Below are positions 8,154 through 64,000 of a stretch of 64,000 bases of DNA, one piece after another (positions within the stretch are counted from its first letter, which is position 1; the number at the start of each line of letters is the position of its first letter). The translations under genes and the position numbers were made by a program. Origin of the DNA: Dictyostelium discoideum (taxonomy: Eukaryota); NCBI GenBank assembly GCA_000004695.1, contig CM000151.3:6080001-6144000 (forward strand). Direction: 5' to 3'. The notes below the pieces were generated by a model. That model saw only the letters and a list, made by a program, of their open reading frames with translations. It was not told the DNA's origin and searched no databases.

Positions 8154-8222
8154 CATTAAATGTTTTTTTTATTTATTTTATTTACACCACTTTAATTCTA
8201 ATATATATATTGAATCAAAACA

Positions 8223-9011
8223 CTATTGATTTAATAATTTTAAACCTTGAATTATGTCAGGATTTTTTAAAGTTCCTCTTTTATATTCTTCTAAGGATAT
8301 ATAACCATCACCATCATCATCCATTGAATCGAAAAATTCTTCTATTAAATCATGAGGATCAAACTTTTTACCAGAACATGTTACAAATGTTCCAACTAAT
8401 TTATACATGCTCTCTAAAATTGATTCCATCTCTGATCTTGTTATATATCCATTACCATCGATATCATATAATGAAAATGCAACTTTATAAAAAAAAAAAT
8501 AATAAAAAATAAAAAATAAAAAAGTGAGGGTATAATATTAATAAATGATAAATAAATATAATGATAATGATGATGATATTAATAAATAATTTACATTCTA
8601 TTTTCTCCTCTGGAGTACCTCTAGTTATTGAAGACAAACCACATACAAACTCTTGAAAGTTTATTGTTGAATCTTTATTTTTATCGAATACATTAAATAA
8701 TAAATCTTGTAGAAATTGATCACCTACACCCATTTGTGTCATTATCTCTTTAAATTCTTGTTTATTAATAGTTCCAGATGGTGAATCTTTTCTAAACTGT
8801 TTATATAATGCTCTTAATTCTCTAGAATCAACTAATTCATTCTTTTTTGGTTAATTAAATGTTATTGTTATTGTTATTGTTGTTGTTGTTGTTGTTGTTG
8901 TTTTTTTAATGGTCATAAAAACAAAAAAAAAAAAAAAAGACACTTACAATGTGATGAATTTTGAAGGAGCTCTACCTCTTCCTTTTTAAGAGTTCCTAAT
9001 TGATTTCCCAT
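8223..9011 (-). CDS. neuronal-calcium-sensor (NCS-1/frequenin/recoverin family) EF-hand protein, 4 exons. N-terminus MGNQLGT is a candidate N-myristoylation site. EF loops DKNKDSTINFQEF, DIDGNGYITRSEM, DDDGDGYISLEEY. Possibly the D. discoideum ncsA-type gene.
   Basis: Spliced translation ...FLQDLLFNVFDKNKDSTINFQEFVCGLSSITRGTPEEK...AFSLYDIDGNGYITRSEMESILESMYKLVG... aligns with NCS-1 ([47 protein letters not shown]). Confidence 0.7.
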
Positions 9012-9361
9012 TCTATTCTTTATATATTTAAAAAACATTATTTTTATTATTAATTATTAATTATTATTTTATTGTGGGCAAATTTATATATATATATGTT
9101 TGTATATGAATAATTTAAGAGGTGTTAATGATTTTTTGTTTTTTTGTTTTTATTTTATTTAAAAAAAAAAAAAAAAAACTATTGCAAAAAATGTTTTATG
9201 TAATTGAATTTGCAATGTGATAAGTTGTTAAGTATTTTTTTTATATGAACCCAAATTATAGTTTGTTAATTTATATTTTCACAATTATTTTAATTCATTT
9301 TACAAACTGTTTTGGTGTTTTCTTTTTTTTTTTTTTTTTTAAAAATAGAAACATACATTTT

Positions 9362-9395
<34 letters not shown>

Positions 9396-9718
9396 TTTTT
9401 TTATTTTTTTTTTATTTTATTTTATTTTATTTTTTTTTTATTTTGGGGGTGAACTTTTTAAATGATGATTACCAAATTTTATTGTGTGTGTTTGGAAAAA
9501 AAAAAAAAACAGTGTGGTGATAAAAATTTAAAAAAAAAAATAAAAAGAAAAAAAATAAATTAAAAAAAAAAAAATTTCGATGAAAAATGAAATGGCAACC
9601 AAACGATTGAGATTTTATTAAAAAACTATAAAGAAAAAAAACACAATTAAATAAAAATAAAAACACTTGATTTAAAATTTTTGTTTAAAGTAAAAATTAT
9701 TTATTATTACTAATAAGT

Positions 9719-10352
9719 TTATTTTTTGGCGGTTTTCTTGCCAGCTTTCTTTAAACGGTTCTTCTTTTCCTTTCTTTGTTTTCTTGAGGTTTGTGGTTTA
9801 GTGTATAAACCAGCCTATTATTTAATGAAAATAGAATGAAGTAGAAAGTAGAAAATAATAATAATACGAACATGGAAATAAAAAAAGATACAGTTTTAAT
9901 TATAATTTAATTTACATAGAAAATTAAAATTATAATAATTTGATTAGTTTAAATGGTTCATTAATGAAATGATCAGCAAGTGATACCCGCAACAACATCA
10001 CTGGTTATTGATGATCATATTGTATTATTGTTGTCGTTGAGAGTATAAAATGAAACGAATTACTTACACGTGCAAGACGGTATTTTGGTTCGTATTTCTT
10101 GGCAATTTCTAAGTTGTCATAGATTAAACCGAAACCAGTTGATTTACCACCACCGAAGTCAGTCTTGAAACCAAAGAGGAAGATGGTTTCTGGGTCAGCA
10201 ACTTTGTGGAGTTTAGCAATGGTGGTTTTTAAGTCTTTTTTGGAGACGTTGGCTTTACCTGGGTGAACAACTTCGACAACGAATTGCTTTCTTGAGAGGA
10301 GACGGTTGGTTAAGACCTTTCTGGTACGAACAACGACGGCAGCTTTATCCAT
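9719..10352 (-). CDS. rps24: 40S ribosomal protein S24 (exon1 10068..10352, GTAAGT intron, exon2 9719..9814)
   Basis: [95 protein letters not shown] + [31 protein letters not shown]. This matches eukaryotic S24 almost residue for residue. Confidence 0.9.
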
Positions 10353-10813
10353 TTTCTATTTAAAAATATTTAGTTAGTTATATTCCCTTTGATTTCATTC
10401 TATTGAATAGTTTAAATTTTGTGATGATTGATTGAAATAGGTATGATTGATGATAGATAATGAAAGATTGATATGGATTGATGATTTTAAAGAAGGATTG
10501 AAGATGAATTGAAATGCCTCAGGAAAATCAAATCAAATAAAATAAAATTATATGTATATTATGACTACATACGATTTTGACGTAAAAATAAAAGGATGAG
10601 TTAAAAAAAAAAATTTTAGTTTTGATGGTGGATTCGGTTTTTTTTTTTTTGAAAAAAAAAAAAAAAAAAACTGAAAATTTTGTTGACAAACAATAATAAG
10701 CGTTATGTTATTTTTTTTTTATTTCAAACCAAAAAAACTTTTTTTTTTTTTCTTTTTTTTTCATAATTTTCATTCCATATTAAAATAAATAAATAAATAA
10801 ATAAAAATATAAA

Positions 10814-11106
10814 ATGTCAAAACCAAGACAATCAACACTTGACCCAGAAGACAAAAAATATTTAGAAATTCCAGATTCAGAGGTAGTTTTACCAGCAGCA
10901 GTAGATAGTTATTTAAGACAAAAATTAAAAGATCAATCATTAAAAGAATGTTCAAGTCATGTTGCAGCATTTGCAGATTGTTCAAAAGATAAATATATTT
11001 CAGTTGTTTGGGAATGTAGAGAATTACAACAACTCATGAAAAATTGTTTAGTTGAATAGTAAGTTTTTTTTTAATTTAGAACAAAACTAATATAATTGGT
11101 TCTTTT

Positions 11107-11205
<99 letters not shown>

Positions 11206-11381
11206 GAACACTAAAACAATTATTTACTTTTTTTTTTTATTTAATTTTTTTTATTAATAGCACCACATCAGAAAGATTAATTGGTATGAAAAGAGAATGG
11301 GTTGATGCATCAAAGAAAAGAATTTATGAAAAAAGACTTCAAAAAGAATTAGAATCAAAAGAACCAACACCAAAAAAATAA
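10814..11381 (+). CDS. COX assembly mitochondrial protein, CMC1 family (twin Cx9C CHCH protein). Exon1 10814..11058, intron 11059..11260 containing a ~97-nt poly(dT) run, exon2 11261..11381.
   Basis: KECSSHVAAFADCSKDKYISVVWECRELQQLMKNCLVEY has C-x9-C...C-x9-C and aligns with human CMC1 (KERCSEQVQDFTKCCKNSGVLMVVKCRKENSALKECL). Donor GAATA|GTAAGT, acceptor TTAATAG. Confidence 0.7.
11108..11204. repeat. uninterrupted poly(dT) homopolymer of ~97 nt inside the CMC1 intron
   Basis: Direct reading of the sequence at 11108..11204. Confidence 0.95.
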
Positions 11382-11691
11382 AATTTAGAAAAGAAAAAAA
11401 AAAAAAATCCGCAACATAAATATAATTGTACATATAAACAAAATTTTAAAAATAAATACATATATATATAAAGATCGACCATCCAACCAAAAAAAAAAAA
11501 AAAAAAAGTTTTTTTTTTGAAACACCCTTTTATTTATTTATTTATTTTTTCTTTTTAGTTTTGTTATTTCGTGAGAGGATGAGTTTAAATTAAATTATAT
11601 ATGGATTTTGCCATTTTAACTTAAATACTAAAACAATTTTTAGAAATGAGTTTTCTTTCTTTTTCATTGTTTCTTTCCTTTCCTTTCCTTT

Positions 11692-11730
<39 letters not shown>

Positions 11731-12069
11731 CTTTTTCTTTTCTTCTCCTTTCCTTCATTTTGTTCTTATTATTTTGGTTTATTTATTTATTTATTTATTT
11801 ATTTTTATTTTTAGATTTTTTTTTTTTATTATTTTTTTTATTTATTTATTTTTTTTTTTTATTTTTTTATTTTTTTATAGATATATACAACAGAGCACTT
11901 CTGTTTATTACTATTATTGGTTTAGACGATTCTTGTGTATGTATGGTGATGATAATGATGATGGTTGATGATGATGGATGATGAATGGTAATTAAAGTGG
12001 TTTGATATTAATTATTGATATACGGTTACTTTTAAAAATGTGATTATTTGTTATTAATTGAATGATTAA

Positions 12070-12205
<136 letters not shown>

Positions 12206-12207
12206 AA

Positions 12208-13026
12208 TTATTGAGTAATTGCATTAACTTTTTTAAAGGCGGAAAGTACAGGATAAATATTTTCAAAAGCTTCATAAATCTCTTCACGAACTTTAGCACC
12301 AGTCAAGACGATTTTGCCAGAGACAAAAATCAATAAAACTACTTTAGGTTGAATCATTTTATAGATTAAACCAGGAAAGATTTCAGGTTCATAATTGGTG
12401 AAAGATGTATGTGCATTATGTAAGAGTTCTAATTTGATTGGGAATTTGACATCACAAGATCCAACGATATTTTGAATCTTAAAATCTGTAAATCTTGCAG
12501 GGAAATCCAATTTTTGAATGATTCTTGCATATTTTCTTGCAGCAAATCTACTTGCATCTTCAGATTTTGCTCCAGTGCAAACCATTTTACCACTCTTGAA
12601 AATTAATGCTGTTGTCTTTGGTTCTCTAATTCTCATAATAACTGCTGCAAAACGTTTTGGATTATATTCTGCATTTCTTGCTCCCAATGCAATTGCTTTT
12701 AAATCTAATTCTGTTGCCATATTTACTGTTGAAACTATATTTCTATTTTTTTTTTTTTTTTAAAAAAAAATGATAATAAAAAAAAAAAAAAAAAGGTAAA
12801 AAATCAAAGTAAAAAATTTTTTTTTTTTTTGATTAATAACTTCAATGGGTTGCAGTGATTGAAAAGAAGAAAGAAAAAAAAAAAAAAAAAAAAATTAAAA
12901 AATAAAAAAAAAAAAAAAAAATATAAAAACACACAACACTTACTGGAGGGTTGGAATAATACCAGATGGATGTTTTGAAAGATCAACATTTTGTGCTGGT
13001 GTAGATGTAGTGGTTGCGGTGCTCAT
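12208..13026 (-). CDS. tbpA: TATA-box-binding protein (exon1 12944..13026 [28 protein letters not shown]; intron; exon2 12208..12742 conserved TBP core)
   Basis: ...[68 protein letters not shown]...[30 protein letters not shown] matches the TBP core repeats. GTAAGT donor at 12943, AATAG acceptor at 12743. Confidence 0.9.
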
Positions 13027-47228: not shown

Positions 47229-47302
47229 GTTCGGATGGTGTAGTCGGTTATCACGAATCCTTAACACGGATTAGGTCGTGGGTTCGATTCCCGCTCTGAA
47301 TA
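47229..47302 (+). tRNA. tRNA-Val (anticodon AAC)
   Basis: Cloverleaf: acceptor GTTCGGA/TCTGAAT, D-arm GTGT..TCAC with GGTTA, anticodon stem AATCC/GGATT with loop TTAACAC, T-arm GTGGG TTCGATT CCCGC. Followed by a T-run. Close to the animal tRNA-Val-AAC consensus. Confidence 0.85.
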
Positions 47303-47352
47303 CAAACTAATGCTTTTATAAAAAAAAATTCTCAATTTGAGTGTGTTCGAGT

Positions 47353-47755: not shown

Positions 47756-50700
47756 AAGTAGTAGTAATCATAATATAACCAAAAATATCAACATATAACA
47801 ATATAAAAATTTAAAAATTTAAAAATCTAAAAATTTAAAAATGTAATAAAATATAACAATACACCGCTTTTAGGTAAAAAAAAAAAAAAAATAAACTTAA
47901 AGGTGAACTCAACTTAGGCGAAGAAGAGTTAATAAAAAAACTATTCAAATAAGGTTATTCTACCCACATACCTTGGAATTAAATAGTAATTAAACAAAAT
48001 TAATAGATAATTTCATAGTTAATGGTACTCTTAACATTGTCAGAAGACAAAAGGGTATAACAGTATTCGGTAGAATACTAAAAGAAAAATTCACATTATT
48101 ACACGAGTGTTACAGCACTTTCAAGTATGAAGATTTCCCACTGCAAAAATTCATACTTTACACCCCAGGATATCACTATGTCCACTTTTACACATTTACA
48201 AAAAACATAATAAAAAAAATAAACAATCAAATGGTAAAAGAAAACTGGGGATTGGAGCCATTACTAATAGATGAATGCAACATAGTAATGCTACCAGATG
48301 TGATTAGATATTCATGCATACTATAATTTAATAAAGAAGATGATATCTCAATCATTAAAACAAACATTGATGCTATAAAAGGTAGTAAGCATCCAATAAG
48401 AGCCTTCATCTCTGAATATAACAATAAAGAAATAAGAGATGTTAGAAAAAAAAAAAACACAAGTAATAAAAACCAACAACCAACAACTACAAATACAACT
48501 AAATCAATACCATCAACTCCACCAACAACTAATGCATCAACAACCACACCAATAACAACCACACCAATAACAACCACACAAACAACAACCACACCAACAA
48601 CAACCACACATCAATTACCAACAAGCAATACAACAATCTACAACCTAAACAAAACTACTACTACTACTACTACTACTACAAAACCTATCAATAAAATTAC
48701 TACAAGCAATGGTACCAAGTTTCCAATTGCCAGTAGTATTAGAAAATAATGGAACAATTAAAATTATTACTATGGAACTGCAGAGGTAATCAATCAACCA
48801 ACGCTAAGAATAAAACAGAAGAAACGATAAAAAGAATTGGCACTCAATTAGCACTCCTAACTGAAACTAATTTCAATGGATTCAACCACCACAAAACAAT
48901 GTTCAACTTTGAAAGAATAGATCATGGTTCAGGTAAAGGAACTGGCATAGCAATAGAAAATAGAGATACAAGAAAAGGCCACATATCAATAAACTTCAAA
49001 GACGATGATGGTAGAATACTATCAATTAAATACAATTCCTTTAATTCTATCAACATATTATTGATCTATGCTCCAGCGACTATATCTGAAAGAAACACCT
49101 TCATAATCAACTCAAAATCACTGTTTAAAAAATATAATTCAATCAACCATCAAATAATAGCAGGCGACTTCAATAACAACCACGATTGCAACAGCTTCTT
49201 CGGTACTGAATTACGTAAAATAATAGACCAAGACATGCTACTAGATACTGGTATTGAAGAAAACACTCCAACATTTCCAAGATCAATGAAGAGACTAGAT
49301 AGAATCTACTGTCATCCAACACTACTAAACCAAAATTCAAAACTGGTAGTCCACAACACAGTATTTAACAAATCAGATCACTTTCCCATCACAATCACAA
49401 TACAAACCAACAGAGAAACAGCAACAACAACAACAACCAAACTAGAAAGACTCCCTTGGACATTATGTAAAGAAATTCTCAACAACAAACATATACATGA
49501 TGGGTTATCAGAATTAATCAGTAAGAACAAAGATAAGATCAAATCAGTGGAGGAATGGACGAAATTTAAAAATAATGTCATCAGAGATTATTTAAAAAAA
49601 GAACAAAACAAAATAAAGAAAGAAAAGAACAAAAGAAAATACGTAATCCACAAATTACTTGGAAATAGTGATATCATTCCAAAGATGAGAAAAGAACTCA
49701 ATGAAGAAATAAGTAGAATATTAGAAGAAGAAAGAAAGGTAAAAGCATGGGATATCAAATTAAAACTCCACCTGCATCAAGAAACACCAAGCAAATACCT
49801 CACAAGTATCCTTAAATCCAGAGCCAAAGATAAATCAATATTCCAAATAAAAGATAAAGATAATAAGACCATATCAGATAAAGAGAACATAGCAAAAAGA
49901 TTTGTTGAATTCTATCAAGATCAATATGAAGAGAAAGAAGATAACGAAGAAACCCACAAGAAGTTATTAGAAAAATGGGAAGTAGACGTTGATTTAATCA
50001 AGAAACTCGAGATAGACAGACCGATAAGAATACATGAAGTGACCAAAGCAATCAAAACTTCAAGTATCCACAAATCTCCAGGTTTAGACGGTATCAATGC
50101 ACTATTCTACAAGTACCACATCAACTCAATAGCAAGAATATTGACTATAGCTTTCAACGACCTCCTCACAAATAAGAAAGAAATCCCCACAAAATTCAAA
50201 GAAGGAGTAATAACAACAATATTCAAAAAAGGAGATGAACTAAACATTTCAAATAGAAGACCAATCACCCTTCTCAATACAGATTACAAAATTTTAAGCA
50301 AAATTCTCAACAGTAGATTATTAGATATCACCAGTAAAATTATCAACAAATTTCAAAACGGCTTTGTTCCAAACAGGTTCATCCAAGACAATATTCAGAT
50401 CATGAAGGAAGTAATAGAAATAAGTAACAAAAGAAAGAACAATACACTCATTACCTTTTACGATTTTAACAAAGCATTCGATTCAATCAGCCACAAGAGT
50501 ATCACAAGAACATTAGAGCATATTGGTATCCCCCCAAAATTCACAGCGATCCTACTAAACCTACTCAAAGATACTAAAAACAAAATAAAGATCAACGAAT
50601 TTTTAGTCAATGGAATAACAATCAGAAGAGGAACAAAACAAGGAGACCCAATATCACCAACAATCTTTGCTCTAGTTTTAGAACCACTTCTAATATATAT

Positions 50701-51658
50701 CATCAATGATAATACAATCAAAGGCTTCACTTTACCAAATTCCAAATCATTAAAACTCACTGCATTTGCTGACGACATAGCAACATTTACAAACTCCACT
50801 GAAGAACTAATGAAAATTAATACTAAAATCCAAAAGTACTGCTCAGCAACATCATCATCGTTAAACAAAGAGAAAACAGTAATGATAGCAATAGGAGATA
50901 AACCACACGATCTACCATTCCAAGAGAGTACAGTCCCAGAAAGATATCTTGGCCTCAATTTCACCAAAACAGGTTTAAATTCAAAATACAACACTTTAAT
51001 CCAAGAAATGAAAAACAATCTAATCAAATGGAAATCACAAGCAATAACGATGAAGGCAAAGATGACAATTCTCAAAACATACGTTCTATCCAAATTAACA
51101 TACCATCAATACATGGATAATCTAAATGAAGAACAAATTGAGGAAATCAATAACATGACCAGATGGTTCTTATTCTCCTCAGTTAAGAATACATATACAG
51201 AAGAGAGAAAATACAAAACTATGATGAAAATAGACAGAGCATATGCAGATTGGAAAGAAGGAGGCATAAAATTATGGGATATAGAACTAAGACATATAGC
51301 ATTCAAAATCTGGTACATGAACAGGCTACTCCATAACAACTACAACAACAACAACAATACCTTACAAGAATGGTACATGGAGCAATTAAGTAGAAAAAAA
51401 GCCCCCACTTCAACCCTCAACGATATGTACAGACACTGGGGTGTATTCAGAGTCAAATTTTACCAAAACCATCCAAAGATAAATGAACATAGAAACAGAA
51501 TTACTAAATCTCATCGAAACTGAAAAATTCATCACACTAAAGAAAATCAAACACGACGAAGCAATACTAAAAAACACCAATCAAGATCTTCACAAATACA
51601 AATTCAACAAAGCCTGGCAAACCCCAGCAGCTCCGAACCCTCTTCCAATTTAAGTAGT

Positions 51659-52327: not shown

Positions 52328-52399
52328 TCCTTGTTGGTCTAGTGGTGAGGATTTTCGCCTGTCACGCGAAAGGCCCGGGTTCAATTCCCGGACAGGGAG
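52328..52399 (+). tRNA. tRNA-Asp (anticodon GUC)
   Basis: TCCTTGTTGGTCTAGTGGTGAGGATTTTCGCCTGTCACGCGAAAGGCCCGGGTTCAATTCCCGGACAGGGAG is near-identical to the eukaryotic tRNA-Asp-GTC consensus. Followed by TTTTTT. Confidence 0.9.
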
Positions 52400-52439
52400 C
52401 TTTTTTGGAAGATTTCAAAATTCCTTGTTAAATTTTATA

Positions 52440-52998
52440 TTAACCAATTCCGCAGCATTTCTCACCAAAAAGGTAGAAACACCCTCTTCAGATTCTTCTC
52501 AAGATCACTTCCAGGTATCAACCACGAAAGAGACACCAGATGCAAGATCTGTGGCCACCTATTCAGAGACCCTTATTCTCACCTCTTCACTCTATGCCAA
52601 GATATCCTAGATATTGAAAAAACCATCATATCAACAGTTAACAAATTATCATTCATCAAAATCCACAGATGGTCAATGGATACCTTAGACATATCAAAAT
52701 ACAACAGAACTGAGAGAATCTTCCCCAATCTCATAGGAATAATAGCACACCAATTATGGAAGATAATCTGTCACAAATTGTTCAACACTGATGAAAGCAA
52801 ACCAGAGCCAAAATTCGAACAAAAGGTCATAGAAACAGAATTACTAAATCTCATCGAAACTGAAAAATTCATCACACTAAAGAAAATCAAACACGACGAA
52901 GCAATACTAAAAAATACAAATCAAGATCTTCACAAATACAAATTCAACAAAGCCTGGCAAACCCCAGCAGCTCCGAACCCTCTTCCAATTTAAGTAGT

Positions 52999-53047
<49 letters not shown>

Positions 53048-53160
53048 GTTTAAAAAATTTAATACAATTGAATAATAAAAATAAAACCGTTTAACAAACA
53101 CCGCCGAAAAGACACAAGGACATTCCTTGAAGGTCTGATCACAGGTAAAAAAAAAAAAAA
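52440..53160 (+). mobile_element. 5'-truncated copy of the same retroelement family as 47353..51825 (ORF2 C-terminal Zn-finger-like CKICGHLFRDPYSHLFTLCQD + 3' UTR + oligoA), located ~40 bp downstream of tRNA-Asp
   Basis: 52800..53160 is essentially identical to 51481..51825. It also carries a segment deleted from the full-length copy. Confidence 0.7.
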
Positions 53161-53964
53161 ATTAACCAATTCCGATTAATCATCTACACAACAAAGTTTG
53201 CCCCATTTGCAACAATGAAATGAATAATGATCCCTACGGTCATTTGTTTTTCAATTGTCAGCACACAATCAACTTCATTAACCACGACAAATTAAAATAT
53301 TTTATATATAAAAATTGCAATGGAAACAAAAACTGGTCACTAACAAAAAACCAAACAACAAAATTATACACACTCATCTATAAACCACAAACAAACAACA
53401 AAGCATTTAAACCAGATCCAACTATCAATATTAATTTTCATTTTGCAGAAAACGCACAATATAAAAAATACAGGTTCAACTGGAATTATATAAACACAAA
53501 TCTTGATCTAGTCAGAACACATGCATATTGGAACATAATCTCATTAGTTATTCACCAAATATGGATATGGTTATGCAAATCATTATTTGACATCAATATA
53601 ACTCAATCAATTGTTAATTGGAACAACCAAATTAACAACACAACACTAGATTATGATATATTAAAATCAAAATGGCACAAGCTAATAAGATTGGAATATT
53701 CAAGAACTTTATCAAACTTTAACCAATACTCAATTAAAAACAACCTCACAAAAACTCAAAAAGAAACCCAATGGTCCGAAACCATCAAAAAATTTAAAAA
53801 AGAATGGAGCATAAACACTAATGAACCAATTCCAACAATTACACCACCAATTAATTATTAATTACCTAATCTAAAATAACATACCATTTTAAATTCACAA
53901 AAACTAAAAAACCTAAAATAAATAAATAAAAATAACATACTAATTGTATACTACAATAGTTTAT

Positions 53965-53990
<26 letters not shown>
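53161..53990 (+). mobile_element. 3' fragment of a second retroelement family (ORF2 C-terminus ...CPICNNEMNNDPYGHLFFNCQHT... + 3' UTR + oligoA), abutting the preceding fragment
   Basis: Near-identical to 57763..58575 of the downstream full-length copy, but without that copy's premature TAG. Confidence 0.7.
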
Positions 53991-53996
<6 letters not shown>

Positions 53997-56900
53997 GAAA
54001 TAAACGAGAATTTATACATATAAAAAATAAATCACTGTTATATCTTCAGTATGTTGCGTTTAAAAGTTACATTATAACATATCATCTAATTGATCACACA
54101 CACAACATTGTTGATCAAAAGATCGAACAACCATCTGGTATCACAAGATATATCAAAGCTGCAACACGTAGTGTCACTAAACACAAAATTCAACATGCAA
54201 AAAATGCAGATATGGCAACAACTATAAAAAATGCTATCACAAACCCAAACATGAACAAAAACAATCAACCACCAAAAAACAACATTAACACCCCACCAAT
54301 CAACGAAATTGCAAATTCCAATCGCAATAATAACCCACTTCAAAATAGTGGTTCAAAAGCTACACTAAATGAATCACTTGATATTACCAATCAATCCCAA
54401 AACAATAATGAAATATCACACAAAAGTTATTCTCCAAATAATAATAACGGGAAAAACTCATTATCAATGAGCAATCCAACCGATCCAACAATTGTACCAC
54501 AAAAACCTCTACAATCTCAACCAAACAAACCAAGTGCATCAACCCCAAATACAATAAATACAAGAAGAAGCAGCAATGCCCTGACTACACAACCAGTCAA
54601 TACTGGTGCTACCAAACCTAGTAAGGTATGAGCTCAAAAATCAACTTTATAACATGGAATTGTAAAGGATTCACTGAAAACCCAAACAATCAACACAATT
54701 CCTACCAAAAAGCTGTTGACACACTACAACTACTTATATCAAAACTTCCACCTCGTCCAACAATCTCAATACTCACTGAACTCAATTCATCACCATTACA
54801 ACTTAAACATGATTTTCCCGATCACATCATCTCTGTCACCAAACGAGGAAATGGTGTAATCATCATTAACCATAACCCAAACTCACTCAAACTCAAACAC
54901 ATATCAACAATTGATGGTAGAGCTATTTTAGCAGACGTTATATTTCCAAATCAATTACCAATTGGTATTCTTGGAATTTACGCACCAGTATCAAATAATA
55001 CCATCAAAAAGAATTCATATGCAACTTCACTACAAACACTTCTCCACAACCACTCAACAAACCCAATACCAAACCAATCCCAACATGTATCTATTATCTC
55101 AGGAGATTTCAACTGTATCCACAACGACAATTCACTATTAGATGATATTATCCAATCCTACACATACCAACACCATCTAATTGATCAAGGTGAATTTAAA
55201 AACACTCCAACTCATACACATGGTAACAGATTAGATAGAATATATACTCAATACAATAGAATAGACCCTGAAAATATATATACTCAAGTCCACCAAATTC
55301 CATCTTCATTATCAGATCATAATCCAATATCAACAACAATTTCTTCACCTTTTCAAATAAATAAACATAAGAAAAGATGGATATTATCACCTGGTACTAT
55401 AAATGACCATGAAGCAATCAATATTATCAATCATTTAATAACTAATCACAATAACACATCAATCAATCAATTTACAAACTGGTCAAAAGTAAAATCAAAA
55501 ATTATTAAAACTCTAAAAAACTATCAATATAACAAAGACAAACAAACCCAACGTGCAAAACAAATACTATTAGAAAAAGCAGCAAAATTCAAACATCTTG
55601 AAGAACAATGCATCGCCGAATACAATATTATATGTAACAAAAACAAATTACATCAAAACCACACAAACATATTAAAAAAACATATAAATGGAGAAATACC
55701 TAGCAAGTATCTATCAGCAATACTAAACAAAAGATCAAAAGATGCAAAAATTGAATCAATCCAATATGGTAACATCATTACATCCGACCCCGACCAAATT
55801 GAAAATGCATTTGTTGAATTCTACACAAATCTATATAGCTTACAAATATGTTGTCCAATTACTCACCAGCTCATGCTAAACACATGGTCCATCATAAAAA
55901 ATGAATATTGGAATGGTTTAGACTCACCATTTATACAAGATGAAGTTGAAGCTGCAATTAAAACCTGTTACCCCAACAAATCACCCGGTCCAGATGGCGT
56001 TACAAATGCATTCTACATTAATCATTTAAACCAAGTTAAACCAATTCTCACTGCATTATTCAACGATATACTAGAAAATCCTCACCACATCACAACAGAA
56101 TTCACCGAAGGTCTTATACACACAATATACAAGAAAGGCAACCCCTTACTCATATCAAATCGTCGTCCCATTACACTTCTAAACACTGATTACAAGATCC
56201 TCTCAAAAGTAATCAATGCACGTCTTCTGAGAATACTTCCTTTCATCATCAATAACAACCAAACTGGTTTCGTACCCCACAGATTCATCATAGACAACAT
56301 CATCAACATCAATGAATTAATCAACTACCTCAAATCTAAAAACCTCCCTGGTATCATCACACTATTTGACTTCTTTAAAGCATTTGATTCTATCTCTCAC
56401 GATAGTATTAAAAGAACATTAATTCATATGGTATACCAATAAAATTAATAAATTTAATCCACAAGCTATTATCTGACTTACAAGCAAAAATTTCAATTAA
56501 TGGTAAAACAACCAGAAAATTCGATATTAAAATAGGTGTAAAACAAGGTGACCCAATCTCAGCCACTTTATTTGTAATTGTAATTGAAATATTAGCAAGA
56601 ACAATAAATGCAGACAATTCAATAATTGGTTTACCAATTTCACCCAATCCACAAATTAAAATCAAATTTACCCAATTTGCAGACGACTCTACAACATACA
56701 ACATCAACTACGAACAACAACAACAATCAATCAAACATTTCGATAATTTCTGCGCTTCAACATCATCATCATTAAATTTTGACAAAAGTGCAATAATAGA
56801 AATCAACCCCCACAAAATCACTGATAAACACATAATAAACAATATTCCACAATCAAAAAGAATACCAATAACCAAAAAAGATCAATCAGAAAGAGTCCTT

Positions 56901-58579
56901 GGCTATTTCTTTAATCATAATGGTTTACATAGGAAATTACCAGAAACAATGAAAACATTGAATAAATCATTAGTACTATGGAAAACTAGTGGCACAACAT
57001 TAAAAACAAAAACAACCATCATAAACACCTACTCACTATCACCAATAACATATTTATCATACCTTGAAGAATTTACAAAAGATGAAGAAATTCAAATTAA
57101 TAAATTAATCTCATGGTTTATGAATTCTCCCGCAAATTCTGAATCACCAACTCTCAATACCAATTCCATTGAAAATAACACATCAACCATCCATTCACGT
57201 GCAAAAATACCTTTGATGTGTTATGATAGATCATTAAAACCATTAAAAGAAGGTGGTTGGGGTATGTGGAATATACAATTACGACAAGTTGCTCAAAAGA
57301 TTTGGATATACAACAGATTTTTACAAATGCATAAATCTGCAAATAATTCAATATACATGATAAGTTGGATGGATCAAATCATCAACAAATCAATCTCTTC
57401 TCCATACCTTATAAAAATCAAAAAAGAATGGGAAAACTATGCAACTCAAATTGGACATCTAAAAGATAAAGTTCAAATCCTACAACCAATATTAATAAAA
57501 AATCAAACCTCTCAAACATTAAACACAAATAATATTCCACTACCACCAACACTCAAAGAAATCTACTCGACAATACTCAACAATCACCAATGTAAATCAA
57601 AAGACTATATTGGCAAGAAATATTCAGATCTACTTCTTACTTCGCACCAACCATCAATACAACTATTATGGAAATACACATACGACCAACTATTTGTCAA
57701 AATTCAAAAATTAAAAGATCCAAAAGGCCGTGATACAATGCAAAGATTCCATGCTAGATGTCTTCCGATTAATCATCTACACAACAAAGTTTGCCCCATT
57801 TGCAACAATGAAATGAATAATGATCCCTATGGTCATTTGTTTTTCAATTGTTAGCACACAATCAACTTCATAAACCACGACAAATTAAAATATTTTATAT
57901 ATAAAAATTGCAATGGAAACAAAAACTGGTCACTAACAAAAAACCAAACAACAAAATTATACACACTCATTTATAAACCACAAACAAACAACAAAGCATT
58001 TAAACCAGATCCAACTATCAATATTAATTTTCATTTTGCAGAAAACGCACAATATAAAAAATACAGGTTCAACTGGAATTATATAAACACAAATCTTGAT
58101 CTAGTCAGAACACATGCATATTGGAACATAATCTCATTAGTTATTCACCAAATATGGATATGGTTATGCAAATCATTATTTGACATCAATATAACTCAAT
58201 CAATTGACAATTGGAACAACCAAATAAACAACACAACACTAGATTATGATATATTAAAATCAAAATGGCACAAGCTAATAAGATTGGAATATTCAAGAAC
58301 ATTATCAAACTTTAACCAATACTCAATTAAAAACAACCTCACAAAAACTCAAAAAGAAACCCAATGGTCCGAAACCATCAAAAAATTTAAAAAAGAATGG
58401 AGCATAAACACAAATGAACCAATTCCAACAATTACACCACCAATTAATTATTAATTACCTAATCTAAAATAACATACCATTTTAAATTCACAAAAACTAA
58501 AAAACCTAAAATAAATAAATAAAAATAACATACTAATTGTATACTACAATAGTTTATTTATATCAAAAAAAAAAAAAAA
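53991..58579 (+). mobile_element. full-length but inactivated copy of the second retroelement family (ORF1 54212..54631; ORF2 from 54628, disrupted by a frameshift near 56435 and a CAG>TAG nonsense at ~57850; oligoA at 58565..58579)
   Basis: The ORF1 stop and ORF2 start overlap (ATGA). EN + RT motifs (NRRPITLLNTDYKILSKVINARLL, FVPHRFIIDNI, ITLFDFFKAFDSISH). The RT continues in another frame after 56442. Confidence 0.7.
54628..56442 (+). pseudogene. ORF2 (endonuclease-RT) of the second element, truncated by a frameshift. The remaining RT/C-terminal segments lie at 56443..57854 in another frame.
   Basis: Compare HMVYQ* at 56442 with the continuation YGIPIKLINL...GVKQGDPISATLF... in another frame. 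Confidence 0.65.
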
Positions 58580-59432
58580 GGGATCATTTGTAAAAAATTT
58601 GTTAAATTACAAATAAGAATAATTGGAATAATTAAAAAAAAAAAAAAAAAAAAAAAAAAGGGATTTGATTTAATATTCTTAAAAAAGAAAAAAAAAAAGT
58701 ATAAATTAAAATTTATTTTTAATTTTTTTTTTTTTCATTACACCATTAAATCTTGTTTATTTGTGAATATAAAAAATTATTTTAATTAATCCTTTCACCA
58801 GTAGTACTCTTATTTTTATTTATTTATTATTTTTATTATTATTTCTCAATCAAATAATTTATAAAAAAAAAAAAAAAAAACCTAAATATTTAATTAAGAA
58901 TTCTTTTTATTTATTATTTTTATTATTATTTCTCTATCAAATAATTTTAAAAAAAATACTCTTTAAATTAATAATTATGATTAAAAAAAGAATTTTTTTT
59001 CCCGCACCCCTTTACCATTTTCTTATTTTAGATATTTCCAGATTTGGAAATTTTCTTTTTGGTTATTGGATTTTACTTAAAATAGAAAATTATTTTTTTT
59101 ATTTCCAAATAATTCAAAAAAATTGAAAAATGATCGAGTATAAATAAGAGTTTTTTGAAAAAAAAAAAAAAATAATCATTTATACAAATGTAAAAAAAAA
59201 ATAATAAAGAGAATAAAAATCTAACTCTAACAATTTAAAAGGTTTAGATAATAGTTGATTGACAGTTAAAAATATAAAAAAAGGTAAAGCCATAAAAAAT
59301 GAAAAATAAATAAATAACAATTTAAATCTAACTTTTATATTATATTTTATAGTAATTTTAGACAATAAAAATGGTTAAAATTCAATTATAATCTAGATAA
59401 TATAATATATGAATCACTACCAATCGAATGAT

Positions 59433-59566
59433 AGAGAAAGGAAAGATTTATCTATGCACTATATCATAAAGAAAGGTTGATCATCATCTAAAAATTATTT
59501 CTAAACAAATAAAATGAATCAATTCAAATCAAATGTCAGAGAAAGGAAAGATTTATCTATGCACTA
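59433..59566. repeat. 29-bp perfect direct repeat AGAGAAAGGAAAGATTTATCTATGCACTA (59433..59461 and 59538..59566) in the 3' flank of the acyltransferase gene
   Basis: Direct reading. Confidence 0.8.
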
Positions 59567-59717
59567 AGGCATTTTGAAAAGAAGATGATATAAATAAAAA
59601 ATTAGAAATCAAAAAAAACTAAAAATAAATTAAAACCAATAATAAAATTAAAAAGGTTTAATATATTTTAAAATTAAATTTTTTTTAATAATTTAAATTA
59701 TAAGATAAGCTACTTTT

Positions 59718-60764
59718 TTATTTAATTTTTCCAAATGTTTTAATTAACAAATCATTAGACTTTAAAAAATTAGTTTTAAAATCTTGAGAAATTGCAGTGA
59801 AAAATTGATGATTACAATTGTCATTATTTTCTTTTGAAAGTTTTTTAATATCTTTTTCAACTGGTATTAATGAAAAAATAAAAGGTGATATTTCAACCAA
59901 AACAATTGGTCTATTTACATTTAAACAACTATTAGTTTCATAGATTTGATTTGTTACTTTACCTAGATTAACTGGAGAACGAGCAATATGAAAAAGAAAT
60001 TCTGCATTAAAATCTTGAGTTTTCTTATTATATAATTTTGCAGTTGAACATGATATATTTGGAATTTCAGGTTCAAATGATTGAAATGATAATTGTTTAA
60101 AATCATTTTCAACTGGATCGATATCTGATGTATGAAAATTAATTAAACCTTCAATACAATGAAATCGGATTTCATTTTTAGATAAATAACAAATTAATTG
60201 ATCGATTTCATTTTGATCACCAGCCACCAATATTAAATCATAGCATAAACAACCACAAATTTGAATTGATGGATAATTTGGTTTAATAAAATCCCAATAA
60301 TAATCTTCAGGTTTTTTAATGGATATTATTTTCTTTATTGTTTTATTTTCAAGTTTTGTCATTAAACATGCTCTTTTATGGGAAATGAAACAAGCGGTTT
60401 CCAAATCGATTAAACCTGAACAATAAGCTGAAGCAATCTCTCCTAAACTCATACCAACTATTTGATCTGGTTTTACACCATAATGTTTATAAAGTTTAAA
60501 AATTGAAACTTGAAACATAAATGATATACAATGAATAAAATGTTGTTCTAGAAATGAATCACTATCATTCTCTTTAAGATTTTTATATTTATCAAACATT
60601 GAATATCCATAATATTTTTCATTAAAAATATTATCAATTTCCATTATCGTTGATTTAAAATTATTTCCATTTTCAAATAATTCTAATGGTATTTTATTTT
60701 TAAATGAACCTTGACCAGAAAATATAAATACTAAATATGGTTTTGTTATTTTATTTTCTTCCAT
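59718..60764 (-). CDS. stand-alone acyltransferase (malonyl-CoA:ACP transacylase / PKS AT-domain-like) protein, 348 aa, intronless. Motifs FSGQGS, GMSLGE (His of GHSLGE replaced by Met) and FHTS.
   Basis: MEENKITKPYLVFIFSGQGSFKNK...IVGMSLGEIASAYCSGLIDLETACFISHKRA...LINFHTSDIDPV has AT-domain block order and spacing. Confidence 0.7.
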   Translation of the reverse strand: MEENKITKPYLVFIFSGQGSFKNKIPLELFENGNNFKSTIMEIDNIFNEKYYGYSMFDKYKNLKENDSDSFLEQHFIHCISFMFQVSIFKLYKHYGVKPDQIVGMSLGEIASAYCSGLIDLETACFISHKRACLMTKLENKTIKKIISIKKPEDYYWDFIKPNYPSIQICGCLCYDLILVAGDQNEIDQLICYLSKNEIRFHCIEGLINFHTSDIDPVENDFKQLSFQSFEPEIPNISCSTAKLYNKKTQDFNAEFLFHIARSPVNLGKVTNQIYETNSCLNVNRPIVLVEISPFIFSLIPVEKDIKKLSKENNDNCNHQFFTAISQDFKTNFLKSNDLLIKTFGKIK

Positions 60765-61359
60765 TTAAAATTTTAATTATTATTATATTTATATTAAGTA
60801 TGTCTGTGTGTTTATGTAAGTGAAAAAAAATAAAAAAAAAATAAAAAAAAATAAAAATAAAAATAAAAATAAAAATAAAAATAAAAAATAAAAATAATAA
60901 AAAATAAAAATAAACACAACGTAATGTAATAAAAAAAAAAAAAAATTACAAGTCAAAAGTAATAATTAAAATTAATAAAATTTAATTCATTATTTTAAAA
61001 ATAAAATAATTATAAAAATTAATGAATCTGTTTTAAAAAATATCTAGATATCTTATTATTATTTACTTATTATTGTTTTTCCCAATGGGAATTTCTTTAG
61101 GTTAATAGAAGAAATTCTATTTAAATATAATAAAAATAGAACAAAACTGTTTTTTAAAAAAAAAAAAAAAAAAGAGATGATTTTCTAAAGATTTTTTTAT
61201 TTTCTTTTTGCTTCATAAAAAAAACAAAAAAATTCTTTTTAAGATATTTTTCTCATTTTCTTTTTTTATTTTTATTTTTTTTTTTTACTTTTTGATTAAT
61301 TTTTTTTTTTTTTTCCTAAACCGTAATTTTATTTGAAAGTGAAAAAAAAAAAAAAAAAA

Positions 61360-62516
61360 ATGATTTCAGGTATTGAAGAAGATATAAAAGAAAAACCATT
61401 TGTTGTGTTTTTTTTTTCAGGTCAAGGTGGAATTCATAATAAATTAGCAGTCGAATTATATGAAAAAGAACCAGTTTTTAAGAAATGGACTGATGATATT
61501 GATAATATTTTAAAAGAGAAATATTATGGATATTCGATGATTGAAAAATTAAAATCAATAAACGATGATGATAGAGAAGCATTATATGATCAACATCTTG
61601 CTCATTCAATTTTATTTATATTACAAATTTCATTATTTAAATTATATAAACATTATGATGTAACTCCTGATATAATTTATGGTTTAAGGTATTATTTAAT
61701 TTGAAAAAATATAATAAAAATAATAATACTTTTTTTTTTATTTTAAATTTTATATTAATTAATATAATATTTAATAATTATTATTTTAGTTTAGGTGAGA
61801 TTGCATCATCATATTGTTCTGGAATGATTGATTTAGAAACAGCATGTTTTGTTTTATATTCAAGAGCAGTATCAATTAATAAAACATTTAAAGAATATGA
61901 TAGAACATTGGTATCAGTTGATATTTCAGAAGAAAATTTCAATTCAAAATATAGTTTAAAATTCCCATCAATTGAAATTGCTTGTAAAATTCATGCTCAT
62001 ACCATTACATTGGGTGGGAAAATTACAGATATTAATCAACTATTTGAATTGTTTGATATTGATAATGTCAGTTATAAAAGATTACCAATTGCATCAAGTT
62101 TTCACACTTCTTCTATGGAATCTATTAGGGAAGAAATTCTTAATTTATCATTCGATTATTCTCAACCTACTATTACTCATTTTTCAACAGTAACTTGTAA
62201 ACCATTTGATATCAAAACCCAACCATTTAATTCATTTTATCTTTATAATAATATTCGTGAGCCATGTCTATTGGAAGAATCAACAAAAAATATTTATTTA
62301 TTTCATTTAAATAATAATAATTTAAATTATGATAATAATAACAATAATTATAAAAATAATGAATATAATTATGACAATATTGATAAATTAACAAATCAAA
62401 AAAAATATAACCAATCAAAAAAACCAATATTTATAATAGAAATATCTGCGCAATACTCTTTAATTTATTTTATTGAGAAAACAATATATGAATTATCAAT
62501 CAAATATAATGATAAA

Positions 62517-62559
<43 letters not shown>

Positions 62560-62663
62560 TTAATAATAATAAATTTTTATCTACCTTGTATAGAGACAAA
62601 AATGGAGATTTAAATACATTTAAAAATGTAATATCAAATATTAAAGAGGTTTACAAAAACTAA
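61360..62663 (+). CDS. paralogous stand-alone AT-domain-like protein (exon1 61360..61688, intron GTATTA...TTTTAG, exon2 61790..62663). The intron splits the G-L|S-LGE active-site motif. C-terminal Asn/Tyr-rich tail.
   Basis: FFFSGQGGIHNK...IIYGL/SLGEIASSYCSGMIDLETACFVLYSRA...ASSFHTSSMESI. Divergently oriented to the 59718..60764 gene. Confidence 0.65.
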
Positions 62664-63297
62664 TAATTATATTAAGTTTTGACAACAGCCACACAGAAGG
62701 AGAGATAGGCAGATACAGAAGCAGAGAGAGAGAAGATTATGGGTTATTTTGGGTAGAAGGGATAGAGGGGGTAGAAATTTTAATATTACTGGGCTATTCA
62801 TTAATAAAAAAAAAAAAATAAAAAATTTGTTATGTTTTAAAAATTATTTTTAATTTGTCAGTGTTTTTAAACAGATTTTTTAAAAAATAAAAACAATATC
62901 ACTGATATCAGTGGTTCATTAAAAAAAAAAAAAAAATTTTTTTTTTTTTTTAATTTTTAATCTAAAAAGATTAAATAGTGGGAATTTATTGTATTTTTTG
63001 ATTTTTTTATTTAAATTTATTATTTTAAAAATATATTTAATAAATCTTTTTTTTAAAATTTTAAATTATCATTTTTTATTTTTATTTTTTTTTTTTTTTT
63101 TTTAATTTTTATACTTGCACATAAAAAAAACAAAATAAAATAAAATTAAATTTAATCTTCATTAATTAATTTATTTAATTAACAAGTAAAGAAATAAAAA
63201 AAATAACAAGTAAGAAAAAAAAAAAAATTCAATCATCATATAAAAAAAAAAAAATTCTAACATATCAAAAATAATTATAATAAATTTTAAAAAAATT

Positions 63298-64000
63298 ATG
63301 GAAGAAATTTTATTTCCAACCAAATCACCACATATTACATTTATGTTTACTGGTCAAGGATGTTGTTTTCCAAAAATGGGTCTTGGTTTATATAATAGTG
63401 AACCAATATTTAAAGAATGGATTGATAGAATTGATGAAATTTTAAAATCAAAATATTATGGTTATTCAATGTTTGAAAAAATTAATTCAATTGATGAAAA
63501 AGATCAAGATGGATTAAACAATCAACATTTATCACATTCTGCTTTATTCATGTTTGAAGTTTCTCTATGTAAATTATTAAATTATTATGGTTTACATCCA
63601 AATTTAATAATTGGTATAAGTTTGGGTGAAATCGCATCAGCATTTTGTTCTGGTATGATTGATTTAGAGACATCATGTTTTTTAACCTATAAAAGGGCAT
63701 TCTCAATTGAAAAAACCATTAATGGTGATAGTACATTAATTATAGTTGCAATTTCTGAAAATGAATTTTTAAATAATTATTCATTGAAATATACAAATAT
63801 TGAAATTGCAAGTAACCTTACATCATCATCATTATTAGTGGGTGGTAAAAAAAATGATTTACTTTCATTTTGTCAAGAATTAAAAGAAAAGAAAATATTT
63901 TTCGCTCAAACCTCATTACCAACTTCATTTCATACATCAAGTATGGAACCAATTAAAAATGATATAATTCAATTAACAATTAATAATCAGTCACCTAAAA
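63298..64000 (+). CDS. third paralogous AT-domain-like protein, truncated by the window end (MEEILFPTKSPHITFMFTGQGCCF...IIGISLGEIASAFCSGMIDLETSCF...PTSFHTSSMEPI)
   Basis: Same motif set (TGQG, GISLGE, FHTS) as the two preceding genes. Confidence 0.65.
   Translation, partial: MEEILFPTKSPHITFMFTGQGCCFPKMGLGLYNSEPIFKEWIDRIDEILKSKYYGYSMFEKINSIDEKDQDGLNNQHLSHSALFMFEVSLCKLLNYYGLHPNLIIGISLGEIASAFCSGMIDLETSCFLTYKRAFSIEKTINGDSTLIIVAISENEFLNNYSLKYTNIEIASNLTSSSLLVGGKKNDLLSFCQELKEKKIFFAQTSLPTSFHTSSMEPIKNDIIQLTINNQSPK

Follow-up and report, generated by a model that had tools for sequence, protein, structure and literature searches.

On chromosome 2 of Dictyostelium discoideum AX4, three intact genes that each encode a single acyltransferase (AT) domain (AT1, AT2 and AT3) lie side by side at the end of the 64,000-nucleotide stretch of DNA analysed here (the window). 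Profile searches, structural matches and trees support their recruitment from the AT lineage of Dictyostelium polyketide synthases (PKSs), and, by a narrow balance of probability drawn from sequence, they would be competent, cytosolic stand-alone AT enzymes excised from a Dictyostelium cis-AT. Their likely role would be that of a trans-acting Ser-His transacylase or hydrolase of carboxy-acyl thioesters. Of the roughly 40 iterative PKSs of D. discoideum, about half show no recognisable release domain, and a lineage-specific AT family that is expanding in tandem is an obvious candidate for their trans partner (loader, editor or off-loader). The searchable literature contains no mention of the AT1-3 identifiers and apparently no study of the family.

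One gene is encoded on the minus strand and two on the plus strand, as the first-pass annotation of this DNA had described, and the region between the divergent AT1 and AT2, which it had put at ~600 bp, presumably serves as a promoter region common to both (Table 1). AT1 is a single exon of 348 aa. The spliced AT2 product is 400 aa long, with Asn-rich low-complexity inserts in exon 2; an AX4-like assembly annotates a product of the same length, and the same exon-intron model applied to a locus of another strain (L001) reproduced the annotated 411-aa protein (P0007) exactly. For AT3, 234 of 350 codons lie inside the window, and the sequence past its end was followed through the 350-aa AX4 protein, which falls in the cluster of P0017, the ortholog from another D. 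discoideum strain (98.7% identity over the 234 aa seen), and through the orthologous locus, where the 350-aa gene is followed 3' by a convergent mitochondrial-carrier (Mito_carr) gene. A second D. discoideum strain and the AX4-like assembly both show the three genes in collinear order, and the composition of the genes is Dictyostelium-like (GC about 20-25%). All three are already present in the AX4 annotation as hypothetical proteins, with AT3 mis-named 'beta-ketoacyl synthase family protein'.

Table 1 Features of the AT1-3 cluster (positions in the window)
Feature	Position	Strand	Basis or remark
AT1 = DDB_G0275991 (XP_643360, Q552M2)	59718-60764	-	ORF and exact match to AX4 protein
AT1-AT2 intergenic region, AT-rich, 595 bp	60765-61359	.	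Coordinates of both start codons; GC 14-17%
AT2 exon 1: codons 1-109 and first two bases (AG) of the Ser110 codon	61360-61688	+	Sequence reading, translation
AT2 intron, 101 nt, GT..AG, phase 2	61689-61789	+	Splits the catalytic Ser codon AG/T
AT2 exon 2, including stop codon	61790-62663	+	Completes GLS/LGE; carries Arg (+25) and SFHTS
AT3 = AX4 XP_643362 / Q552M0	63298 to beyond 64000	+	Gene cut by window end

Neither the window nor the sequence flanking the orthologous locus showed homology to KS, DH, KR or ACP. When three whole Dictyostelium PKSs were compared with the window by tblastn, matches fell only in their AT residues (about 540-890), and Pks21 searched against six related loci (L001-L006) again matched through its AT residues alone. 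Each of the three genes has its own start and stop codons rather than lying between KS and DH in one polypeptide, the neighboring genes are unrelated, and no PKS gene was present within about 10 kb at the four clusters inspected. The AT-only matches and unrelated neighbors bear out the earlier proposal that these are free-standing AT genes and not exons of a PKS.

Membership in the AT family, also proposed earlier, was confirmed by a Pfam search, in which AT1, AT2 and AT3 scored 77.5, 81.6 and 78.3 bits against PF00698 (Acyl_transf_1; gathering cut-off of 32.7 bits). Structure prediction likewise recovered an AT fold: the AF2 model of P0017, built on only 10 sequences, had a pLDDT of 81.4 and a pTM of 0.85, and its top 50 PDB matches in Foldseek were all AT-fold domains (query-normalised TM 0.73-0.85), with a TM of 0.85 on the AT of Pks16. 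The D. discoideum Pks16 AT was also the best PDB sequence match of the family profile (204 bits, over the whole profile), followed by the bacterial acyl hydrolase (AH) PksD at 125 bits. Both profile and model span all 350 residues, including a C-terminal extension as in PksD and the cis-ATs.

The motifs expected of an AT occur in AT1 (FSGQG, GMSLGE, NFHTS), AT2 (FSGQG, GLSLGE, SFHTS) and AT3 (FTGQG, GISLGE, SFHTS), with the catalytic Ser at residue 106 of AT1 (codon AGT at 60447-60449) and 108 of AT3 (AGT at 63619-63621). The first-pass annotation was correct on the order of FxGQG and GxSLGE and on the replacement of the GHS His by Met, Leu or Ile (AT1, AT2 and AT3, respectively), but its (A/S)FHTS consensus does not hold for AT1, which has Asn at the first position. 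Using the residue numbering of E. coli FabD (sequence verified as identical to 1MLA), Gln11, Ser92, Arg117 (at +25 from the Ser), Phe200 and His201 show no variation across the family members that were aligned to FabD. His91 is replaced by M/L/I/V/C/A/T, usually an aliphatic residue, Gln14 is usually missing, and Gln63 is His in every member, so that loss of His91 is coupled family-wide to a Gln63-to-His change, a pairing missed in the first-pass annotation. Among 447 PKS-embedded ATs examined, about 95% keep the His before the nucleophile and none combines H63, a non-His residue at 91 and R117; judged from these alignments, the loss of the GHS His is well beyond chance. The alignments also support an intact catalytic Ser-His dyad, oxyanion Gln and malonyl-binding Arg in AT1-3.

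Compared with Dictyostelium cis-ATs (Pks16, PDB 9NJU; Pks21), the family shares the domain boundaries, the post-AT extension and Q11/S92/R117/F200/H201, whereas it is free-standing (348-400 aa), without KS, DH, MT, ER, KR or ACP, and differs at positions 91, 63 and usually 14. The resulting signature is intermediate between canonical ATs and bacterial AHs. It amounts to a natural experiment on the His of GHSxG, which is strict in transferases and has no assigned role (PMC11775670). In PksD, the residue in the FabD 63 column (numbering verified) is His71, which lines the acyl pocket and hydrogen-bonds Gln12 and Gln124, and the H71A exchange kills activity. We read the likeness to PksD at positions 63 and 91 as probable convergence, because AHs are without Arg117 and fall in a separate clade.

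Several lines of evidence agree on the origin of the family. Per-domain HMM ranking placed Dictyostelium cis-ATs (245-300 bits) above bacterial modular ATs (at most 144 bits) and bacterial AHs (at most 124 bits), in agreement with Pks16 as best PDB match. In neighbor-joining (NJ) trees, the sequences without the GHS His form a monophyletic clade (93% bootstrap) that comprises 22 or more sequences, drawn from five Dictyostelium species or lineages, and adjoins the Dictyostelium PKS cis-AT domains, while the AHs form a clade of their own (96% support) and no sequence in the tree is more distant than E. coli FabD. The proposed recruitment from a PKS is thus upheld by ranking, structural match and phylogeny alike. 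The family is limited to the D. discoideum species group. The search for further copies also located a second AX4 triplet on another chromosome (DDB_G0284373/453/375); because D. discoideum is genetically tractable, these six AX4 genes make the family directly testable.

Pairwise identities of 37-47% indicate that AT1-3 are old paralogs, in keeping with the earlier view that they have diverged and are not recent duplicates. An intron inside the active-site motif of AT2 had been offered as a peculiarity of this copy; the intron is there, but it is common to the paralogs of the second triplet, whose introns are identical to it in position and phase. Because it is shared in this way, the Ser-codon intron is ancestral to the family, and AT1 and AT3 have lost it. 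The sequence runs through the site uninterrupted in an intron-less Logan contig from a paralog, and the Pks21 gene is without this intron. Comparison with other strains showed AT1-3 to be under purifying selection, with dN/dS values of 0.13 for AT2, 0.05 for AT3 and 0.42 for AT1 (wild strain), the last evolving fast under relaxed constraint. AT1 is truncated to 209 aa in one strain and an AT4-type copy carries an in-frame stop, and part of the family is dispensable.

Free-standing, PKS-derived AT genes also occur in D. purpureum (DICPUDRAFT_27499) and D. dimigraforme (ACTA71_011812). These are sister to the clade without the GHS His (79% support) and are canonical at Q63/H91 and at Gln14, and their intron differs, lying in phase 0 at aa 128. 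In one of them, KS-AT-linker sequence occurs at the N-terminus or upstream of it. From their sequences, these GHS-type ATs seem to represent domain excision at an earlier stage or as an independent event.

Following the favored reading of AT1-3 as excised, competent ATs, the cis-AT of an iterative type I PKS of Dictyostelium would have become a gene of its own by excision, and tandem duplications within the D. discoideum species group would later have multiplied it. Judging from the conserved residues, the His of FH(T/S)S would activate the Ser of G-Phi-S-L-G-E for attack on an acyl thioester, producing an acyl-O-Ser enzyme stabilised by the backbone at Gln11 and at the residue after the Ser. 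Retention of Arg117 and Phe200 would suit an unbranched acyl group with a carboxylate (i.e., malonyl-type), which could be passed either to a phosphopantetheine thiol (on CoA, or on an ACP belonging to one of the 40 PKSs of D. discoideum) or to water. With His91 replaced and Gln63 changed to His, an imidazole would face the acyl pocket in the manner of PksD, and this paired change would imply that donor or acceptor choice, or the balance of transfer versus hydrolysis, has moved away from that of the parental cis-AT. Catalysis, substrate class and trans action on PKS carrier proteins are features we infer.

The alternative that competes best, although it is still on the unlikely side, is that AT1-3 are editing or off-loading hydrolases, convergent with the AHs of bacterial trans-AT systems, that cleave stalled or completed acyl chains from the ACPs of iterative PKSs. 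Bacterial AHs (PksD, PDB 8AVZ; PedC; the Profftella homolog) likewise stand alone, at about 320-355 aa, and have a C-terminal extension and a Ser-His dyad; in them, as in the Dictyostelium family, the nucleophile is preceded by a residue other than His (AH motif G(A/S/V)SL) and the Gln63 position holds a His. The rank of PksD as second-best PDB match, the retained extension and a word-indexed search, in which AH-like bacterial proteins were the best matches outside Dictyostelium, point the same way. Just 21 of the 40 PKSs in D. discoideum have a downstream off-loading domain, leaving ~19, including the FAS-like Pks16, without a C-terminal release domain, and a role in release or editing would, if true, explain how products are discharged from these synthases (including the fatty-acid-making Pks16). 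Against this, AHs carry Gln or His in place of Arg117, an absence described as diagnostic (PMC11775670), whereas this Arg is invariant in the Dictyostelium family; on this feature the family does not match proofreading AHs. The AHs also stand apart in the tree and are encoded in trans-AT PKS clusters, whereas the Dictyostelium genes are not grouped with PKS genes and the host PKSs are cis-AT. Exchange of Arg for Gln alone produced no hydrolysis in PedD (PMC11775670), which means that hydrolase activity needs further features. That stand-alone ATs with H63, a non-His residue at 91 and R117 might constitute an unrecognised eukaryotic class of trans-acting PKS accessory enzymes, evolved from the amoeba's own cis-AT in convergence with bacterial AHs, that release or edit chains on these ~19 PKSs is a speculative and rather improbable proposal.

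Slightly less probable than the hydrolase alternative is that AT1-3 are classical trans malonyl-CoA:ACP transacylases that deliver starter or extender units to particular PKS ACPs, for instance in synthases with an impaired cis-AT, or to a different carrier protein such as the mitochondrial ACP. Save for His91, the residues of a malonyl-AT are kept (Q11, S92, R117, F200, H201), D. discoideum has a stand-alone ACP, and some Dictyostelium cis-ATs (two of those sampled) have Cys in place of the nucleophilic Ser. Like the trans-malonyl transferases PksC, DisD and PedD and like FabD/MCAT, the family consists of discrete ATs with Q11, S92, R117, an xFHS-type motif and H201. However, those enzymes strictly keep GHSxGE, whose His is strict in trans-ATs (PMC11775670), as well as Gln63, both of which the Dictyostelium family has lost, and their partners are type II systems or synthases without an AT. 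The PKSs of D. discoideum have been described as carrying their own AT domain (Pks21, for example, carries PF00698), and the sampled cis-ATs are otherwise intact in their catalytic residues, which leaves no obvious client for a trans malonyl loader. The known stand-alone ACP is mitochondrial, whereas the N-termini of AT1-3, as read from the sequences, are acidic, run for ~10 residues ahead of strand beta-1 and show no presequence-like extension. Confinement to the D. discoideum species group is also unlike a universal housekeeping MCAT, and FabD lies farthest away in the tree.

Much less probable than either alternative, and already largely refuted, is that the genes are decaying debris of PKS genes with residual open reading frames. 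The 209-aa AT1, the in-frame stop of the AT4-type copy and the dN/dS of AT1 would fit decay, as would the KS-AT-linker homology retained upstream of the annotated start of the D. purpureum GHS-type copy. Domain-sized ORFs with their own start and stop codons nevertheless persist in five species or lineages, the catalytic residues are invariant across more than 20 members, and AT2 and AT3 have low dN/dS. The conserved intron and the intron-less contig of a paralog also speak against debris, and the H63/non-His91 signature is derived and fixed, unlike the outcome of random decay.

Horizontal acquisition of bacterial AH or trans-AT genes, which would fit the finding of only bacterial stand-alone AT/AH-like proteins outside Dictyostelium in the word-indexed search, has a negligible probability and was ruled out by exhaustive HMM searches with per-domain ranking (245-300 bits for Dictyostelium cis-ATs versus at most 124) and by the tree position beside Dictyostelium PKS ATs, in addition to the Dictyostelium composition and spliceosomal intron of the genes. 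Matches of the word-indexed search such as those from Profftella and a 'bacillaene synthase trans-acting acyltransferase' carry G(Y/A)SLGE motifs.

The three single-domain acyltransferase (AT) genes in the final 4.3 kb of the window, AT1, AT2 and AT3, were recovered as ORFs in the arrangement proposed by the first-pass annotation, one on the minus and two on the plus strand, with two of them divergent across a short spacer. All three also belong to the AT family, as proposed, scoring 77-82 bits with PF00698 against the Pfam cut-off of 32.7, and their pairwise identities are 37-47%. Of the motifs previously listed, FxGQG and GxSLGE were found in every gene, but the third, given as (A/S)FHTS, is NFHTS in AT1. 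The AT2 frame is interrupted past '...IIYGL', and because the DNA at this break reads GGT TTA AG/GTATT...TTTTAG/T TTA GGT GAG (slashes mark splice sites), an intron was placed within the codon of the active-site Ser. With the same splice pattern, the ortholog in a different D. discoideum strain yields its annotated 411-aa protein exactly. In an AX4-like assembly, a 400-aa product is annotated at the AT2 position; no entry for the exact 400-aa AX4 protein was found in the protein collection searched. Orthologs of AT2 were found in D. discoideum strains only. Asn-rich low-complexity insertions were observed at two places in AT2 exon 2, near the AT-domain C-terminus, with none in AT1 or AT3, and their length varies between AX4 (400 aa) and the wild strain (411 aa).

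AT1 is identical to AX4 DDB_G0275991 (XP_643360, Q552M2), named 'hypothetical protein'. Across its 234 residues in the window, AT3 is 98.7% identical to P0017, its ortholog from another D. discoideum strain, and the 350-aa AX4 protein XP_643362 (Q552M0) is a member of the P0017 cluster. NCBI and UniProt both label this AT3 protein 'beta-ketoacyl synthase family protein', although it contains an AT domain only, and automated polyketide synthase (PKS) counts could be misled by the wrong name.

The stand-alone status originally assigned to these genes was upheld. When three complete Dictyostelium PKSs were searched against the window using tblastn, only their AT residues (~540-890) matched, and matches of Pks21 to six related loci were limited to AT residues as well. 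A separate tblastn search of the window for AT copies found AT1-AT3 and no others. The wild D. discoideum strain locus is collinear (Peptidase_M50, AT1(-), AT2(+), AT3(+), Mito_carr(-), Cdc6/ORC-like ATPase), with the same gene order in the AX4-like assembly. The restricted PKS matches and the annotated flanks in these two other assemblies therefore rule out AT1-AT3 as exons of a large PKS, AT3 being complete at 350 aa.

Features of the AT genes, related arrays and neighbouring elements
Feature	Sequence	Position	Strand	Description
tRNA-Val(AAC) gene	window	47229-47303		
ORF	window	48749-51523		924 aa
tRNA-Asp	window	52328-52400		
Non-LTR retrotransposon sequence	window	52425-59642		~7 kb; ORFs 54628-56442, 56949-57854, others
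ORF	window	53220-53861		213 aa
AT1	window	59718-60764	minus	unbroken ORF, 348 codons; FSGQG, GMSLGE, NFHTS
AT1-AT2 spacer	window			595 bp, AT-rich; genes divergent
AT2	window	61360-61688 + 61790-62663	plus	400 aa after splicing; FSGQG, GLSLGE, SFHTS
AT2 intron	window	61689-61789	plus	101 nt, GT..AG, phase 2, within AGT of active-site Ser
AT3	window	63298 to window end (64000)	plus	234 codons seen, remainder outside window; FTGQG, GISLGE, SFHTS
Second AX4 triplet	L007 (AX4-like assembly)	6359-11174	single strand	tandem; G(T/V/I)SCGE; CGQA replaces GQG
Third array, three AT4-type copies	L002 (D. discoideum strain, GCA_054859385.1)	8246-12879		tandem; G(I/V)SCGE
D. purpureum stand-alone AT	L003 (GL870963.1)	9779-11100		canonical GHSFGE, Gln63 kept

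A family search with a profile built from 12 stand-alone sequences recovered many additional members. Further copies, which the first-pass annotation had suggested looking for, form two arrays outside the window. One is a second tandem triplet on another AX4 chromosome (DDB_G0284375, DDB_G0284453, DDB_G0284373), neighboured by MFS transporter, exportin and Yae1_N genes and no PKS. The other, in a wild D. discoideum strain, consists of three tandem AT4-type genes; its last copy has an in-frame stop, and in two copies GQG is replaced by GQC. The 90% cluster of protein P0018 contained no AX4 member, so AX4 may lack the AT4-type array, carry it in decayed form or have it unannotated. No PKS gene was found within ~10 kb at any of the four AT clusters inspected. 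Family genes are named as hypothetical or 'MAT domain-containing' proteins in databases; in the library searched, literature searches on gene, protein and UniProt identifiers returned no paper mentioning them, and a search on Dictyostelium transacylases or stand-alone ATs found none described.

Members lacking the His of the GHS motif (the His-less family) were aligned with E. coli FabD (identical to PDB 1MLA) and with PksD, an acyl hydrolase (AH) of bacterial trans-AT PKSs, in numbering that reproduced the published Q12, H71, S99, Q124 and H201. FabD positions 11, 63, 90-94, 117, 200, 201, 231, 250 and 255, published as active-site positions, were inspected. Dictyostelium AT domains embedded in PKSs (cis-ATs) and GHS-type stand-alone ATs carry Q11, Q14, Q63, H91, S92, R117, F200 and H201 (FabD numbering), with a few cis-ATs differing at 14, 92 or 200. 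Every member of the His-less family retains Q11, S92, R117, F200 and H201, while H91 is replaced by M, L, I, V, C, A or T and Q63 by H; Q14 is mostly lost. Among the 447 PKS-embedded AT domains retrieved, 407 have Q63/H91/S92/R117 and none combines H63, a non-His91 and R117. PksD and a Profftella AH homolog have H63, S/A91 and Q117. AHs carry G(A/S/V)SL in place of GHSL, whose His has no known role in ATs, and absence of Arg117 is diagnostic of them (PMC11775670). His71 is the PksD equivalent of Gln63; it borders the acyl pocket, forms hydrogen bonds with Gln12 and Gln124 and is required for activity, H71A being inactive (PMC11775670). Searching the literature for what FabD His91 does gave nothing usable. 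The 63/91 pair of the His-less family thus resembles that of AHs, but the family retains the AT-like carboxylate-binding Arg117 as well as Phe200, and by these residues it is a hybrid of AH-like and AT-like features. Two Dictyostelium-like PKSs retrieved by the exhaustive profile search, P0102 (2062 aa) and P0155 (1272 aa), have a cis-AT in which Cys replaces the nucleophilic Ser (GHCFGE, GHCIGE), reminiscent of fungal SAT domains, which use a Cys nucleophile.

On balance, AT1-AT3 are probably active enzymes of the AT fold, derived from PKSs and acting in trans. Their residues suggest a Ser-His acyl-enzyme mechanism, and as Arg117 binds carboxylate and Phe200 excludes alpha-branched units, the substrate may be an unbranched carboxylate-bearing (malonyl-type) acyl thioester; the acceptor of its acyl group would be either a phosphopantetheine thiol or water. 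An AH-like hydrolase acting in editing or off-loading is a tentative alternative, attractive because a release domain lies downstream in only 21 of the 40 PKSs of D. discoideum, but the retained Arg117 fails the AH diagnosis. It is rather unlikely that the proteins are conventional loaders, given the presence of the His in canonical trans-ATs, the intact state of the cis-ATs sampled and the restriction of the family to one lineage.

Selection was assessed by dN/dS (Nei-Gojobori, AX4 versus wild strain), giving 0.42 for AT1 (24 non-synonymous, 13 synonymous), 0.13 for AT2 (9 and 15) and 0.05 for AT3 (3 and 15). Purifying selection on AT2 and AT3 is clear, and AT1 is relaxed with a ratio still below 1. 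These values rule out AT2 and AT3 as pseudogenes. It is very improbable that the genes are relics. Truncated or interrupted AT copies do occur in some strains and point to birth-and-death evolution of the family.

By origin, the family goes back to AT domains of Dictyostelium PKSs. A first word-indexed search found orthologs only in the D. discoideum species group (D. discoideum, D. cf. discoideum, D. citrinum, D. dimigraforme and D. firmibasis) and, outside Dictyostelium, bacterial stand-alone AT/AH-like proteins, a hint of horizontal transfer that was corrected by an exhaustive profile search. Matches were ranked by bits per domain, as whole-protein scores are inflated in bacterial synthases with several ATs. 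Among the best 150 representatives, family members scored 372-598 bits and Dictyostelium cis-ATs, together with the D. purpureum stand-alone AT, 245-305; the highest scores were 144 for bacterial modular ATs and 124 for AH-like proteins. Among solved structures, D. discoideum Pks16 matched best in sequence (9NJU; 204 bits over the whole profile), followed by PksD (8AVZ; 125 bits). An AlphaFold 2 model of P0017 (99% identical to AX4 AT3), built on a shallow 10-sequence alignment, had a pLDDT of 81 and a pTM of 0.85 and superposed on the Pks16 AT with a TM of 0.85; the top 50 matches listed were all AT-fold domains. It is these domain scores, the Pks16 match and the superposition that argue for descent from Dictyostelium PKSs.

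The phylogeny suggested by the first-pass annotation agreed. Neighbor-joining of 49 AT sequences (200 bootstraps) placed all 22 stand-alone proteins of the His-less type in one monophyletic clade (93%), the GHS-keeping DICPUDRAFT_27499 (D. purpureum) and ACTA71_011812 (D. dimigraforme) joined them (79%), and all were placed beside Dictyostelium cis-ATs; an earlier tree of 35 taxa, before newly found paralogs were added, supported the His-less clade at 70%. Bacterial AHs formed a separate clade (96%), and since the tree separates the two groups, we read the AH resemblance as convergent. Exhaustive search, per-domain ranking and trees together rule out a bacterial origin by transfer of AH or trans-AT genes for practical purposes. 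The D. purpureum stand-alone AT sits between discoidin-like lectin genes (F5_F8_type_C + H_lectin), and homology to the PKS KS-AT linker (Pks21 residues 464-540) reaches ~220 nt upstream of its annotated start codon, which suggests that it was excised from a PKS more recently or incompletely.

The intron reported within the AT2 active-site motif is present but not private to AT2, as DDB_G0284375, DDB_G0284453 and DDB_G0284373 all carry one at the same site and phase (AG/T of the catalytic Ser). The AGT is unbroken in AT1, AT3 and AT4, the AT region of the Pks21 gene lacks an intron, and the GHS-type gene of D. purpureum is interrupted at another site (phase 0, residue 128). Read most simply, an ancestor of the His-less family acquired the intron, and AT1, AT3 and AT4 later lost it precisely. 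A 1034-nt Logan contig of a DDB_G0284375-type paralog is coding across the Ser codon without the intron; we read it as a spliced transcript, and this paralog as transcribed and spliced as modelled. Logan contigs L005 and L006 carry AT1, which is itself intron-less, and their homopolymeric ends make them possibly genomic. What appears to be new is the recognition of these PKS-derived stand-alone ATs as one monophyletic family that expanded in tandem, together with its fixed H63/non-His91/R117 signature and the ancestral intron in the catalytic codon.

Directly downstream of the tRNA-Asp, retrotransposon sequence extends to the AT1 3' end, and a 1307-aa product (Exo_endo_phos + RVT_1) is annotated there in the AX4-like assembly. 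In the wild strain, the orthologous locus lacks the element, and its two flanks lie ~165 bp apart. Its position and this absence fit a TRE-type element that targets tRNA genes and whose insertion differs between strains. Near the tRNA-Val(AAC) gene, the 924-aa and 213-aa ORFs may belong to further retroelements.
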